Positions 8,913 through 21,444 of a DNA stretch of 27,377 bases are shown in pieces. How positions within the stretch are numbered: position 1 is the stretch's first letter; each line of letters starts with the position of its first letter. Both the position numbers and the translations under genes were made by a program. Origin of the DNA: Candidatus Thorarchaeota archaeon (GTDB lineage: Archaea > Asgardarchaeota > Thorarchaeia > Thorarchaeales > Thorarchaeaceae); contig JBHLRP010000045.1 in assembly GCA_048882485.1 (NCBI GenBank), forward strand, positions 1-27,377. Direction: 5' to 3'. The notes below the pieces were generated by a model. That model did not search any database. It had not been told where the DNA came from and was given only the letters and a program-made list of their open reading frames with translations.

Positions 8913-10964
8913 ATGAGTTCAAAGAAGAAGAAATACAAAAAGGCGAAGAAGAAATCTGCCCCTCGAAAAAAGACTACTCCGGATTCAGTCGTTGCTGGAG
9001 CGGGAGCAGGGGATATTCGCCAAGGTACCATTGCCAAGTTCATGCGGAAAAGAACTCAGTTAGTGGGCTTTGAAACTGGCTTAAACAAGCATACCCAATT
9101 TGCAATCGAGTTCCTAGATAACGCAATTGACGCAGTGGAAAGCTGGTGGTGGAAGACTGGCAGACATCCACGACTTGATGATCAATTGGATCCCAAGTAT
9201 ATCGAAGAGATCCGAGCAAAGCTTGAGGGGACCCTTCATGACTCAATTGCCCTTAGTAAGAAGCTTGAGAAGGATGTACGAGAGGGCAAAGAAGTTGAAA
9301 TTCCGCCAAGACGGAGAGAAACTCTGCAGGACCGCCTTACAAACTTCAGGAAGTTTGTGGTTCCGTTTCGAGGCATGATTAACAGACGAGAGCCCCTGTG
9401 TGTCATTCAACTTACTGAGGTTCAGATGCCTGACCTAGTCCCGCTTGATGATGAAGAGGGGTTCAAAGTCTACGAATTCATATGCTTTGATAATGGAGTA
9501 GGCATGGTTCCTTCAGATTTGGAGAAGTTTGGAATCTACCTCGCTTCAAGCAAGTCCGAAAAACTAAGGCAGACACGAGGCAGTCAGGGATTTGGTGCTC
9601 CTTCTGCCTTTAGCGACGCTCAGAATACAACCGGTAAGCCCATATTCACTATATCGAAGCGGTTCAACACCAAAGAGGCCACTGTCACCGACTTCTATAC
9701 AACTACTGCAAACACAAAGGAATATGTAAGTGGCCCAATCGACATGGAGCTTCCGTTTGAGCATGGGACCTATATCAAACTCAACTATCTGAATATCCAG
9801 TATCGGCGTGGATATGCTGATACCTACTGTGAGATGGCATCATTGCTCAACTCTCACGTGACCATTGTTTTCATCGATCCCTACGGGGCAGTACACATCT
9901 ATCCAAGAAGAGTGAGGGAATTTCCTGCTGAGCCGAAGTACGCTCAGCCTCATCCGGCAAGCATTCGTATTGGTGAGTTTCAAGACCTACTTCGAGAATC
10001 TCCAGAGCCAGATTTGCGAAGCTTCCTAACCAAAGCCTTTGTGAGGTTGAGTGGAAACAAGGCAAAGACCATCATCGGGAATGCAAACAAGGAATTGCGT
10101 AGGCGACATCAGGATACACTTAGCCCTAAGACCCCCACAGATTCGCTCTCAAAGATGGAGATAGAACTGCTCTACAAGGCATTCTCTGGAGAGGACTATA
10201 TAGCACCACCAACAGACACAGTAGTCCCAGTTGGAGAAGAGGTATTTGAGCAGACTATCCACATGGCCTATGAGCCAGACTTCGCTACAGCAGTTACGAG
10301 AAAACCTACTTCTGGAAAAGGCCTCTCTTTTGCTGTTGAGGTGTGTATTGCGTATGGAGGGAATATCAAACCCGCAACTTCTGCCCCAATGGTTCTGTGG
10401 CGGTTTGTGAACCGTGTTCCAAAGCTCAGGGACAACAGTGACTGCGCAACTTGGAAGGCAACAACCTCGGTTAATTGGAAGAATTACAAGGTGCAGACCT
10501 TTGACAATGGCATTCCCCGAGGACCCATTATGGTGTTTATTCATGTGGCTGGAGCATACGTTCACGTGATGTTCAAGGGACAGAGCAAGCAAGCACTGGC
10601 AGAAGATGAGGTGCTGCTACGTGAGATTAAGTTGGCTCTCGAAGATGCAGGTAGAAGATTTAGACGCTTCATTACAAGACGTGAAACAGCCAAGCGAAAG
10701 GCAAAGCGTGCAGGAATTCTTGCTATGTATGCTGACCAGTTCTCACAGAGTCTCGCTACAATCGCAAATGATGGAAGGAAGAAACCATTGTTTGATGCTG
10801 AGGTTGTTGCAAGGAAGATCCGTGACTCAATCACCGGATTTGAAACTGCAGATGACCAAGAAGAAACTGAAACAGATGCAAGAGGTACTGACCTCGTTGC
10901 TGATGTCCCACTTGGGGATGGCGATGAAGACTTCGCTGAAGTATCAGTGGATGGTGGCGATTAA
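8913..10964 (+). CDS. top6B: DNA topoisomerase VI subunit B
   Basis: GHKL motifs EFLDNAIDA, DNGVG, SSK...QTRGSQGFG and HGT; QPHP; H2TH region; transducer RFVNRVP and FKGQSKQA. Confidence 0.95.
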   Translation: MSSKKKKYKKAKKKSAPRKKTTPDSVVAGAGAGDIRQGTIAKFMRKRTQLVGFETGLNKHTQFAIEFLDNAIDAVESWWWKTGRHPRLDDQLDPKYIEEIRAKLEGTLHDSIALSKKLEKDVREGKEVEIPPRRRETLQDRLTNFRKFVVPFRGMINRREPLCVIQLTEVQMPDLVPLDDEEGFKVYEFICFDNGVGMVPSDLEKFGIYLASSKSEKLRQTRGSQGFGAPSAFSDAQNTTGKPIFTISKRFNTKEATVTDFYTTTANTKEYVSGPIDMELPFEHGTYIKLNYLNIQYRRGYADTYCEMASLLNSHVTIVFIDPYGAVHIYPRRVREFPAEPKYAQPHPASIRIGEFQDLLRESPEPDLRSFLTKAFVRLSGNKAKTIIGNANKELRRRHQDTLSPKTPTDSLSKMEIELLYKAFSGEDYIAPPTDTVVPVGEEVFEQTIHMAYEPDFATAVTRKPTSGKGLSFAVEVCIAYGGNIKPATSAPMVLWRFVNRVPKLRDNSDCATWKATTSVNWKNYKVQTFDNGIPRGPIMVFIHVAGAYVHVMFKGQSKQALAEDEVLLREIKLALEDAGRRFRRFITRRETAKRKAKRAGILAMYADQFSQSLATIANDGRKKPLFDAEVVARKIRDSITGFETADDQEETETDARGTDLVADVPLGDGDEDFAEVSVDGGD

Positions 10965-13117
10965 TGGCTCGTAAGAAGAAGTCCGAGAAGACTGAGACCG
11001 TCCAAGAAACCCTTGGAAACCTCATCGAAACCAAGAAGAAGCCAAAAAAGAAGACCACGAAGAAAGCAACCTCCAAAGAATCCAAAAAGCCTACAAAAGC
11101 AGCCGCTAAACCAAAAACCAAGACCAAACGGAAGATGCCTACTTCCAAGAAGGAGAAGCCATCCGAGACACCTGCAAAGAAACCTGCCGAAAAACCAGCT
11201 GCTGATGTAGCTTCCGAAATATCTGGACCATCATTGAGGCTCTTGCCTGGTGTAGGTCAGAAATTGGAAGAGAAGCTCAAAGCCGCAAAGTATGACACAG
11301 TTGAGAAGATATCCAGGTCTCGGTCAAAGAGCATGGCAAGTAGGGTCGATGGTCTTAGCTTGTCAGGCGCCAAGAAACTGATAGATGCGGCAAAAGAATT
11401 GCTTAAAGGTGAAACAAAGGGTGTCACGATTGTGAAACCTTCGGCTTCTGAGGCAGATGTGGTTGATGACAGTCCAGAAACTAGACTCAAGCTAACTGAT
11501 TTGCCGGGAGTTGGTGGAAAGCTCGCCAAAGAACTTGAACGTTCCGGCTACAATACAGTGGCAAGATTGTCACGTTCTAGGCCAAGCTCAGTAGCCAAAG
11601 TCGTTGACGGGCTAAGTCTAAAGAGGGCAACAACCCTTGTTGATACTGCTATTGAACTCATACGCGAAGCAGAGATGATTGCTATCTCTGAAACCATAGC
11701 TCCAAAGCCTGCTCCAATAGATGAGCCAAAGAAGCTAGAGGAACCGCCAGAGGTAAAACCTGAGAAGAAGGATGAAACAAAACCTGAGAAGAAGGAACCA
11801 CCAAAGGAAGCTCCAAAAAAGCCTACGAAACCGAAAAAGCCCATAAAGCCTGAAAAGGAACCAGAAATCGATGTCCCTAAAAAGACAAAAGCGAAGAAGA
11901 AGAAGTCTGGTCTCCCCGTTCCCGATTCAGTAAAGGCCCTTGAAAAAGAAATGAAACGGAAGTGGAAGGCGGCTGAGAAACGCAAGCTCGCAATTGAGGC
12001 AGGAGAGCTTCCAGAGGAAGAGATTGAACCTCTGAAAGAAACTGTGGAGGTTGTTGGTCTCACTTCTAATCAAACACAAGACACACTCGTGGATGTCGCA
12101 ATGGAAGTCCTTAATGAGGCCATGTTAACTGGACGACCAGCTTTTGAGATTCCTAGCAGATCAAGTGACAATATCGTCTGGGATGAAATCAGAGACCTGC
12201 TTCTACTGGGGATGAAGACAGTTGCTCGACCCTACCATTCTCTTGCTTCAGTGGTAGATGCCACCAGAACTGCAAGGGTCATGGAGATAGTCTTCCAACT
12301 CCTGAAGTCCAATCTGCATGCGACTAAACGAGAGGTCTTCTACAGTGATGTTAATTTGTTTCGTGAGCAAAAGAGGAGCGACAAGATTGTCGAGGACGTA
12401 GCTTCTATGCTACACACGACGCGTGACAGCATTCATGTGGTTGCTTCAGCTCGAGGTTCTGCGATGGGAAGAGTTGTGATTCGTGATGGTGGAGACACCA
12501 TTGATCTAACTCGAATGGGAACCGGCGGTTGGGCAATCACTCCCTTCTTGGATCAAGTTGAGATTTTAGAGAGCGATGCCGAGTTCATACTGCTCTCTGA
12601 GAAAGATGCAGCAGTTATGCGATTGGCAGAGGCAAAGTATTGGAATAGGCAGCCATGCATAGTCTTGACAGGAAAAGGCTCAGGTGACATTGCGACTCGT
12701 GCCTTCCTACGCATGCTAGTGAAGGAGCTCGAGATTCCTGCGTTCGCGCTAGTAGACTCAGATCCTTATGGGCATTACATATACTCCGTCTTCTTGCGAG
12801 GTAGCAAGAGACTCAGCTATGAGTCTCCCTTCATTGCTACTCCTGAGTTAAAGCTTCTAGGCGTCCTGAGTCGTGATCTTGAGGAATATAACATTCCAAA
12901 ATCTGTTCGGATACCAATGGAGCCAACTGACATCAAACGTGTCAGGGACATGCTCAACGAACCATTCGTGCAAGCCAACAAGGCATGGGTGAAAGACCTG
13001 AGACTGATGTTGAAGCTTAAGGAGAAGGCAGAGATTCAGGCATTCGCAAGCCACAGCTTTGAATACCTCACTGATGACTATTTGCCTCGCAAGCTAGAAA
13101 CAGGGGATTGGATTTAA
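10964..13117 (+). CDS. top6A: DNA topoisomerase VI subunit A (Spo11 family) with a long N-terminal HhH/Lys-rich extension
   Basis: The C-terminal ~355 aa carry the catalytic Tyr motif TKREVFY, Toprim EKDA and DSDPYG, and KAEIQA. TAATG stop/start overlap with top6B. Confidence 0.95.
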   Translation: MARKKKSEKTETVQETLGNLIETKKKPKKKTTKKATSKESKKPTKAAAKPKTKTKRKMPTSKKEKPSETPAKKPAEKPAADVASEISGPSLRLLPGVGQKLEEKLKAAKYDTVEKISRSRSKSMASRVDGLSLSGAKKLIDAAKELLKGETKGVTIVKPSASEADVVDDSPETRLKLTDLPGVGGKLAKELERSGYNTVARLSRSRPSSVAKVVDGLSLKRATTLVDTAIELIREAEMIAISETIAPKPAPIDEPKKLEEPPEVKPEKKDETKPEKKEPPKEAPKKPTKPKKPIKPEKEPEIDVPKKTKAKKKKSGLPVPDSVKALEKEMKRKWKAAEKRKLAIEAGELPEEEIEPLKETVEVVGLTSNQTQDTLVDVAMEVLNEAMLTGRPAFEIPSRSSDNIVWDEIRDLLLLGMKTVARPYHSLASVVDATRTARVMEIVFQLLKSNLHATKREVFYSDVNLFREQKRSDKIVEDVASMLHTTRDSIHVVASARGSAMGRVVIRDGGDTIDLTRMGTGGWAITPFLDQVEILESDAEFILLSEKDAAVMRLAEAKYWNRQPCIVLTGKGSGDIATRAFLRMLVKELEIPAFALVDSDPYGHYIYSVFLRGSKRLSYESPFIATPELKLLGVLSRDLEEYNIPKSVRIPMEPTDIKRVRDMLNEPFVQANKAWVKDLRLMLKLKEKAEIQAFASHSFEYLTDDYLPRKLETGDWI

Positions 13118-20262: not shown

Positions 20263-20400
20263 TCTTGTCGATGTTTAATATTCAATCACTCGGCAGTCCA
20301 ACTAGTGCTATTTTTATATCTAGTAATGCGACAAGTGGATGACCATGTGCTTGGCATTGCATGCGCGGATGGACGCCAAGCATTGAGGGAGGTCCTCAGG

Positions 20401-21444
20401 ATGTCACCAAGAAAGAAGGCAGATGAAGAAGAAACCGTAGATTATGAGGATTTCGAGGAAGGCGAAATCGATGAGGAATTTGTCGAGCTCGGCACTGAGG
20501 GAGAATCAGGATTAGATGTTACTGATCTCCCAGGAGTCGGGCCAGCAATCGCAAAGCGCTTGTCTGAAGCTGGATACAGAAGTGTTGAGGCGATTGCAGT
20601 GGCATCTCCATCTGAGCTTGCAGCAGCGGGATCAATCGGCGAAACCACATCGACCAAGATCATAAAGGCAGCACGTGAAATGCTTGATATTGGCTTTGAA
20701 ACAGCAGACCTTCTTCTTGAAAGGCGAAAGACAGCGGGACGAATAAGCACTGGCTCTGCTGCACTTGACGAACTCTTTGGCGGAGGACTTGAAACCCAGA
20801 GCATCACGGAGATGTACGGTTCATTCAGATCCGGGAAGACACAGATGGCACATCAGCTGTGCGTTATGGTACAGAGGCCAGAAGGTGATGGTGGATTGGA
20901 TGCTACAGCCATCTATGTGGACACAGAGGGCACCTTCAGACCTGAGCGTCTTGTAGACATGGCTGAAGCTTATGGCATGGATAAGAAGAAGGTTTTGAAG
21001 AATGTTGTTTGGGCACGCGCCTACAACTCTGACCATCAGATCCTTCTATGCGATCAAGCAATGGAGATGGCTCCTGAAAAGAATGCTAAGCTATTGGTTG
21101 TTGATTCAGTTACGAGTCACTTCAGAGCCGAGTACACTGGAAGAGGTACACTTGCCGCCAGACAACAGAAGCTAAACAAACATCTGCACCATCTTCAACG
21201 AGGAGCTGAAATCAACAACATGGCAGTCTACATCACTAATCAAGTGATGTCACGACCTGATGCTTTCTTCGGAGATCCAACTGCTCCTGTTGGAGGCCAT
21301 GTGCTTGCTCATGTTCCCCAGACACGTTGCTATCTAAGGAAGTCCAAGGGTGAACGGAGAATCTGCAGACTCGTGGACTCGCCCAATCTTCCAGAGGGGG
21401 AGGCGGTATTTACAGTCACAAAAGATGGAATACGTGACGTATGA
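20401..21444 (+). CDS. radA: DNA repair and recombination protein RadA
   Basis: HhH N-terminal domain (DLPGVG), GFETA polymerisation motif, Walker [53 protein letters not shown] lies before ATG 20401. Confidence 0.97.

Follow-up and report, generated by a model that had tools for sequence, protein, structure and literature searches.

Two questions are open in the field about topoisomerase VI (Topo VI), the decatenase of archaea and plants from which Spo11 descends: by what means it locates DNA crossings, and whether it acts in a manner coupled to the replisome. The locus described here, a top6B-top6A gene pair on a 27,377-nucleotide stretch of DNA from a Candidatus Thorarchaeota archaeon (assembly GCA_048882485.1, contig JBHLRP010000045.1, positions 1 to 27,377 of the forward strand; hereafter, the window), raises a related question: what is the role of an arm of about 310-350 residues that precedes the catalytic core of the Top6A subunit? 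We consider it probable that the locus encodes a working Topo VI whose basic arm with helix-hairpin-helix (HhH) modules, gained in the ancestor of one archaeal family, most likely tethers the enzyme on DNA, and docking of the same arm on PCNA is possible. The enzyme itself is a known one and the arm is fixed in one family; in the literature that we searched, the arm is undescribed. An earlier reading of the window, made from the sequence alone and referred to below as the original prediction, had proposed that the HhH modules tether or bridge DNA and may link break formation to recombination through RadA.

A Topo VI with a long N-terminal arm

The two genes and the parts of Top6A are listed below by their window positions (aa, amino acids; PIP, PCNA-interacting protein; pLDDT, predicted local distance difference test score in the AlphaFold2 (AF2) model; dN/dS, ratio of nonsynonymous to synonymous substitution rates).

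8913..10964, plus strand: top6B, 683 aa, GHKL ATPase and transducer, assigned by Pfam and motifs; N tail rich in Lys, C tail acidic
10964..13117, plus strand: top6A, 717 aa, its ATG overlapping the top6B stop codon by 1 base (TAATG)
10994..11026, plus strand: PIP-box-like N-terminal motif ETVQETLGNLI (aa 11-21), conserved in 63 homologues and part of the PCNA model
11030..11227, plus strand: basic tail rich in Lys, Thr, Pro and Ala (aa 23-88), predicted disordered; 35% K, net charge +18, pLDDT <50, dN/dS 0.22
11228..11413, plus strand: HhH repeat 1 (aa 89-150), HHH_5; Pfam 28.0 bits, pLDDT 74-86
11414..11479, plus strand: short acidic linker between the repeats (aa 151-172); net charge -3, pLDDT <50, dN/dS about 0.5
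11480..11671, plus strand: HhH repeat 2 (aa 173-236), HHH_5, the better conserved of the two; Pfam 29.2 bits, pLDDT 73-92
11672..11899, plus strand: linker rich in Lys, Pro and Glu (aa 237-312), predicted disordered; 29% K, 22% P, 18% E, pLDDT <50
11900..12013, plus strand: KKSGLPVP motif and N-terminal helix leading into the core (aa 313-350), recognized by conservation; helix 321-345 with pLDDT 83
12014..13114, plus strand: Top6A catalytic core (5Y-CAP/TP6A_N and Toprim), recognized by Pfam, invariant residues and the solved relative 2zbk_A

The two genes are predicted to encode a complete ATP-dependent type IIB strand-passage topoisomerase rather than a Spo11-like break-maker, because the ATPase partner, Top6B, is intact by sequence. 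Located directly upstream of top6A, top6B codes for a subunit with a transducer domain (Topo-VIb_trans, E 3.4e-42), a weak Pfam match to HATPase_c_3, and the GHKL motifs in its translation (N-box EFLDNAIDA, G1 DNGVG, G2 GSQGFG), i.e., for the B partner of a Topo VI holoenzyme. In Top6A, Pfam places the TP6A_N domain (PF04406), which is the 5Y-CAP domain, at aa 434-492 (E 2.4e-19) and Toprim (PF21180) at aa 541-711 (E 2e-53), and because of this placement the catalytic core is taken to begin near aa 350-420. Y460 (in KREVFYSD), the predicted catalytic tyrosine, and E546, D598 and D600, the Glu and DxD residues predicted to be the metal ligands of Toprim, are invariant across the 63 homologues, and the best solved relative of the 717-aa protein is the Top6A of the crenarchaeon S. 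shibatae (2zbk_A, E 2.9e-59). The tails of the partner subunit are also charged: the N tail of Top6B is Lys-rich (net +11; window 8913-8987, aa 1-25) and its C tail is strongly acidic (net -15; window 10830-10961, aa 640-683). The latter could fold back onto the basic arm of Top6A.

The original prediction had described this Top6A as about twice the usual size and had noted a K/T/P/A tract, two repeats and a K/P/E linker in its N-terminal half. This description holds in full: solved Top6A chains comprise 369-389 aa and those of other Asgard families 369-489 aa, the composition of both tracts is as listed above, and the positions and residues that had been quoted for the repeats agree with the translation. 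The repeats are 50% identical to each other (BLASTP, E 6e-18), and each of them alone passes the HHH_5 gathering score of 27. The passing scores and a helical fold of four to five helices per repeat place both among the HHH_5/(HhH)2-like domains. They are basic, with isoelectric points (pI) of 9.9-10.3, and retain the canonical hairpin LPGVGxK. In the AF2 model built with the 63 homologues, the repeats have pLDDT values of about 73-92, and residues 1-88, 151-169 and 246-301 fall below 50. The model built from the single sequence was unusable (mean pLDDT 38), and since the core of the 63-homologue model is also poor (mean pLDDT 54) and its whole-model Foldseek TM-scores are low, only local matches of this model are informative.

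Where the arm meets the core, the KKSGLPVP motif (window 11900-11923, aa 313-320) is strongly conserved within the HhH-bearing family: S315 does not vary, and G316-P320 reach a conservation of 90% or more. In the helix that follows, W334 is invariant as well. The motif is missing from the 420-aa Top6A of the sister family. An extra N-terminal helix of Top6A of the Asgard/eukaryote type has been described (PMC9665070).

The arm appears to be coding and under purifying selection. In the closest pair of genomes, the only pair in which dS is not saturated and on which dN/dS therefore rests, the repeats have a ratio of 0.16 and the disordered tracts have ratios of 0.22-0.24, compared with 0.012 in the core. 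Across the genus, where dS is saturated, repeat 2 is still 81-89% identical. Relatives retain the 1-nucleotide overlap of stop and start codons, in the form TAATG or TAGTG, and in them a start codon (ATG or GTG) always stands directly before the conserved N-terminus.

The arm is restricted to one Thorarchaeota family

A search with residues 1-360 of Top6A matched 79 protein clusters, all of which contain HHH_5 and Top6A domains and come from Thorarchaeota-type metagenome-assembled genomes (labelled Candidatus Thorarchaeota or Promethearchaeota). Two repeats are present in 77 of these clusters, three in one and five in one, and searches of whole genomes add forms with four repeats and one form with seven (950 aa). 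The distribution of the fusion among Asgard lineages, a check which the original prediction had suggested, was followed in 201 Asgard genomes of 27 families, and the fusion is confined to a single family. Within this family (f1), the top6A gene was found in 42 of the 43 other genomes, and the open frames measure 658-954 aa except for four shortened ones (241-527 aa), at least three of which lie at a contig end. In the 26 other Asgard families sampled, the Top6A open frames measure 369-489 aa and the roughly 310 extra N-terminal residues are absent from all of them; the sister family in the same order has a Top6A of 420 aa that lacks HhH modules.

Since the long frames are confined to this family and its sister family has no HhH modules, the arm was gained once, at the base of one Thorarchaeota family, with the number of repeats varying afterwards (2-7). 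In a maximum likelihood (ML) tree, the repeat 2 clade spans genera with support 97/94, and therefore the duplication that produced the two repeats predates the radiation of the family. The variation of the repeat number between two and seven is as expected for an additive DNA anchor.

Two Top6A-like matches from other Asgard families (29% identity; G030:C1:99412-100500 and G035:C23:269619-271007) lie inside very long open frames, which measure 1109 and 988 aa. They may represent a different kind of type IIB enzyme, fused or extended.

The arm as a probable DNA tether

What could such an arm do for a decatenase? It is strongly basic and predicted to be flexible, with HHH_5 modules set between Lys-rich disordered tracts. 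Its most likely ligand is duplex DNA, bound irrespective of sequence. Since Topo VI is an A2B2 enzyme, the holoenzyme would carry four extra HhH DNA anchors on long leashes, and these anchors may raise its affinity and processivity or help to capture the second duplex at a crossing, in the manner of the (HhH)2 array of topoisomerase V. The tethering role is the most likely one judging from membership in the HHH_5 family, charge and the analogy with topoisomerase V. The part of the original prediction that saw built-in DNA tethering modules thus stands by inference, with the basic HHH_5 character, the purifying selection, the fixation in the family and the match to topoisomerase V speaking for it.

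The analogy with topoisomerase V is close in sequence. When a profile built from 46 Top6A repeats was compared with solved structures, repeat 624-682 of topoisomerase V was the best match (58.3 bits, E 5.6e-15), followed by RadA of P. furiosus (49.6 bits) and RadA of M. voltae (43.6 bits). Topoisomerase V of Methanopyrus kandleri, a type IC enzyme with 12 tandem (HhH)2 domains, is likewise a topoisomerase with a tandem HhH array. It differs in having an unrelated catalytic domain, in cleaving a single strand and in acting without ATP; its array is C-terminal, contiguous and equipped with AP-lyase sites, whereas in Top6A a smaller number of modules lies at the N-terminus, with disordered Lys-rich tracts between them. 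The (HhH)2 domains of topoisomerase V wrap DNA and serve as a processivity factor, and work from 2002 established that such HhH motifs give chimeric polymerases processivity and salt resistance (PMC9489208). The topoisomerase V array has already served in the engineering of polymerases that are processive and tolerate salt. A modular HhH arm of 2-7 units carried throughout a family, possibly with a PCNA hook, amounts to a natural experiment on processivity and recruitment.

The possible hook is located at the very tip of the arm. Within the first 22 residues of Top6A, a motif [TV]VQxTLGxL[VI]E follows a run of lysines. Among the 63 homologues, V13, Q14, T16 and L17 show a conservation of 90% or more, in contrast to the variable flanks and the variable tail that follows. 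A PIP box has the consensus Qxx[LIM]xx[FYW][FYW] and lies at a terminus. We modelled a complex of Top6A residues 1-45 with the PCNA encoded by the same genome, alongside three controls. The interface score ipSAE was 0.73 for the tip-PCNA model and 0.02 for the best control; 58 of 80 solved complexes and 2 of 110 mismatched pairs attain this mark, counts that apply only roughly here, as our own alignments went into the model. The model runs share at least 56% of their contacts, and the pLDDT of the partner is at least 49. In the model, residues 11-21 of Top6A contact residues 40-47, 124-128, 226-227 and 243-250 of PCNA, i.e., the canonical PIP site. The VQxTLGxL[VI] tip may thus dock Topo VI on PCNA in addition to the tethering by the HhH modules, perhaps at the replication fork. 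Searches of the literature did not find a PIP box described for Topo VI.

A more far-reaching version of this proposal is tentative and, in our opinion, rather doubtful as a whole: the arm would make this enzyme the first clamp-tethered type IIB topoisomerase, with the non-aromatic PIP box recruiting Topo VI to PCNA at the fork, the HhH modules and Lys-rich leashes holding the sister duplexes for decatenation, and labour divided with the second, euryarchaeal-type Topo VI of the same genome (described below).

Several points weigh against the tethering and docking roles. Binding of DNA by the arm is deduced from family, charge and analogy. Domains of the HHH_5 type can mediate protein contacts, and the AR2 domain of NusA is among the fold matches of the repeats; on L32e and RpoK, which carry the same module, it could have RNA or protein as its ligand. 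The poor AF2 core leaves contacts between arm and core unreadable from the model. As for the tip, it lacks the aromatic pair and has L20-I21 in its place, while Fen1 of the same genome ends with a canonical QSSLTDFF; motif positions 7-8 (L-I or L-V) are non-hydrophobic in some lineages. Finally, complexes of PIP boxes with PCNA are abundant among solved structures, and the passing score of the model may reflect likeness only.

Kinship of the HhH modules

To which HhH domains are the repeats of Top6A related? All HHH_5 hosts of this genome were scored with the profile of the 46 repeats. Ribosomal protein L32e ranked first (74.9 bits), followed by RpoK (56.6 bits), a membrane protein (48.2 bits) and RadA (45.0 bits), with all others at or below 20 bits. 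The HhH module of L32e is 53% identical to repeat 1, and thus it is as close to repeat 1 as the repeats are to each other, given their 50% identity. A global search of 1.8 billion representatives at E<=1e-3 matched 2316 proteins, and the best 150 of these include six L32e, seven membrane-protein, three RpoK and two RadA hosts. In an ML tree of 61 domains and 64 columns, the Top6A repeats form one clade (90/89) and the RadA N-domains another (99/96), and the modules of Thorarchaeota RpoK are a weakly supported neighbour of the Top6A-repeat clade (83/82). One HhH module has spread across proteins of translation, transcription and replication in this lineage.

In L32e of this genome (G000:C52:10601-11446; L014:1468-2316:+), the module lies at the N-terminus and is followed by a K/P-rich linker. 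RpoK/Rpo6 has the same HhH subtype at its N-terminus (G000:C3:165815-166495 minus; L015:1093-1776:-), and a multi-pass membrane protein has it at its C-terminus (G000:C41:23698-25371; L017:28-1704:+). Both eL32 (H. marismortui 1jj2_X/1s72_Y and the L32e of this genome) and Thorarchaeota RpoK resemble Top6A in carrying the module as an N-terminal add-on ahead of a charged linker; they differ in that the hosts belong to the ribosome and RNA polymerase, a single HhH copy is present in this genome and the ligand may be RNA. The long N-terminus of Thorarchaeota Rpo6 was noted in a 2026 paper (PMC13257274).

This kinship suggests an alternative to tethering, in which the HhH modules are a lineage-wide localisation or interaction tag that binds a common partner (RNA, a chromatin protein or a nucleoid scaffold) or drives co-condensation of the machinery for information processing by means of the Lys-rich tracts. 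The presence of the same subtype on functionally unrelated hosts of one genome, often with K/P-rich linkers, is what such a tag would look like; it is also in keeping with the position of RpoK nearest to the Top6A repeats in the tree, weakly supported as this is, and with the ability of (HhH)2 domains such as NusA AR2 to bind proteins. We nevertheless regard this alternative as improbable, as the modules of Top6A are basic and keep the canonical LPGVGxK hairpin, their best solved sequence match is a DNA-wrapping repeat of topoisomerase V, and a copy number that varies from 2 to 7 is more easily reconciled with additive nucleic-acid binding than with a specific partner.

Much less likely still is the alternative suggested by the original prediction, namely that the HhH modules derive from RadA or work with it and couple breaks made by Top6A to recombination by RadA, aided by the nearby radA gene. 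The gene in question, which lies outside the system and serves for comparison only, is the following.

20401..21444, plus strand: radA, 347 aa; Pfam Rad51 (5.7e-95) and HHH_5 (9e-14)

The likeness of the repeats to the N-domain of the RadA encoded in the window, which the original prediction had seen by eye, is genuine: one alignment spans 61 aa at 33% identity (E 5e-8), the other 40 aa at 45% (E 7e-11). By fold, a single repeat matches the N-domains of RadA and Rad51 more often than any other domains of the PDB (root-mean-square deviation 1.3-3 Å, 23-33% identity), and a sister clade of Top6A repeats and RadA N-domains is not rejected by the approximately unbiased (AU) test (p-AU 0.158, 64 columns). 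Because of this test result, the tree alone is not decisive. The case against descent from RadA rests on the profile ranking, charge and synteny, and not on the tree alone. RadA ranks fourth in its own genome, RadA hosts account for only two of the 150 best global matches, the two groups of domains form separate clades in the ML tree and do not group together as RadA N-domains proper, and their charges are opposite (pI of about 10 for the repeats and 4.8 for the RadA N-domain). A quick tree of 146 HhH rows was discarded, as it was badly optimised, with a constrained tree of higher likelihood (p-AU 0.81).

The alternatives posed in the original prediction, a RadA N-domain or a generic HHH_5 domain, form a partly false contrast, because the RadA N-domain and the Top6A repeats are both Pfam HHH_5. 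It is as members of the same HHH_5 subtype, and only in this sense, that the repeats appear to be RadA-N-like. Compared with the N-domains of RadA and Rad51 in solved structures (1pzn, 1t4g, 1b22), they share the Pfam family and the five-helix fold (identity 30-33%, root-mean-square deviation 1.3-3 Å), but they are not followed by a RecA-fold ATPase or a polymerisation motif, are basic, form a separate clade and are closer to the modules of L32e and RpoK. No Rad51/RecA match was found by Pfam in the 717-aa Top6A, in which the repeats precede the disordered linker and the Top6A core.

The genomic neighbourhood gives no more weight to a link with recombination. From the top6A stop codon it is 7.3 kb downstream to the start of radA, which agrees with the distance of about 7 kb given in the original prediction. 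The genes in the interval are unrelated and lie on both strands (amidohydrolase, zinc-ribbon/TPR protein, Roadblock, ABC transporter). The wider surroundings of top6BA contain an F420 ligase, MFS transporters, the amidohydrolase, the zinc-ribbon/TPR protein, Roadblock and ABC transporters, and because these flanking genes are unrelated, top6BA is regarded as a two-gene unit. The two genes and radA are 2-10 kb apart in most genomes of the order, a proximity that at first sight favours a functional tie. Since it is kept in the sister family without HhH modules, this linkage predates the arm and does not depend on it. In addition, the intact Top6B ATPase argues for strand passage and not for persistent breaks. 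A special tie of the arm to RadA or to recombination, including the proposed link from break formation to repair, is therefore not supported, and the finding has no bearing on the origin of meiotic recombination.

With regard to radA itself, its frame reaches upstream to a GTG at 20305. The likelier start is the ATG at 20401, the point from which relatives align (MSPRKK...). An acidic N-terminal tract precedes the HhH domain of RadA. More distant Asgard genomes, at least two of them (G028, G035), likewise have top6BA and radA close together.

The last alternative, that the extension is an annotation artefact with translation beginning downstream and the upstream frame yielding no protein, can be set aside as having next to no chance of being correct, given that the frame of the arm is open in every relative, the start codon (ATG or GTG) keeps its position overlapping the top6B stop, dN/dS over the arm is 0.16-0.24, the arm contains folded HHH_5 domains, and a conserved N-terminal motif stands directly at the predicted start.

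Relation to other Topo VI enzymes

In comparison with canonical archaeal Top6A (S. shibatae 2zbk_A, 389 aa; M. mazei 2q2e_A, 369 aa), the long copy has the same 5Y-CAP and Toprim core, including the catalytic Tyr and the acidic metal ligands, and an adjacent coupled top6B, and with Asgard Top6A (PMC12680538, PMC9665070) it shares the extra N-terminal helix of the Asgard/eukaryote type. To both it adds the PIP-like tip, the Lys-rich tail, 2-7 HHH_5 modules and the K/P/E linker. A 2025 paper described a conserved Asgard Top6A that is sister to eukaryotic Top6A/Spo11, and extra copies in Thorarchaeia that are related to those of other archaea (PMC12680538). Judging from the best solved matches of the two copies in this genome, we infer that the long Top6A belongs to the conserved Asgard clade. 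The HhH arm is not mentioned in the searched text of PMC12680538, of PMC9665070 or of Topo VI surveys, and nothing specific was found in the literature on an HhH arm of Thorarchaeota Topo VI; the public records name the protein "helix-hairpin-helix domain-containing protein" or "SPO11".

The other copy belongs to a second Topo VI operon of standard size, located on another contig. Its Top6A has 349 aa (G000:C20:34909-35937; L022:910-1959:-), with top6B-2 directly upstream (L022:1952-3001:-). This Top6A shares about 30% identity with the long copy and comes closest to the enzymes of M. jannaschii and M. mazei. A TGA that seemed to lie inside this copy was rejected, as it came from a read-through past the intact 349-aa open reading frame. 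Relatives show a third match of about 400 aa that contains Toprim only.

Related HhH modules were seen in still other settings. Giant proteins of 2000-4700 aa carry 3-7 closely similar modules (P0089, P0092, P0095, P0110, P0127, P0184), and one cluster of such proteins has the JGI label murein DD-endopeptidase MepM. In RadA of the Methanospirillum type (about 408 aa; P0128 cluster), the N-terminal HhH domain is duplicated.

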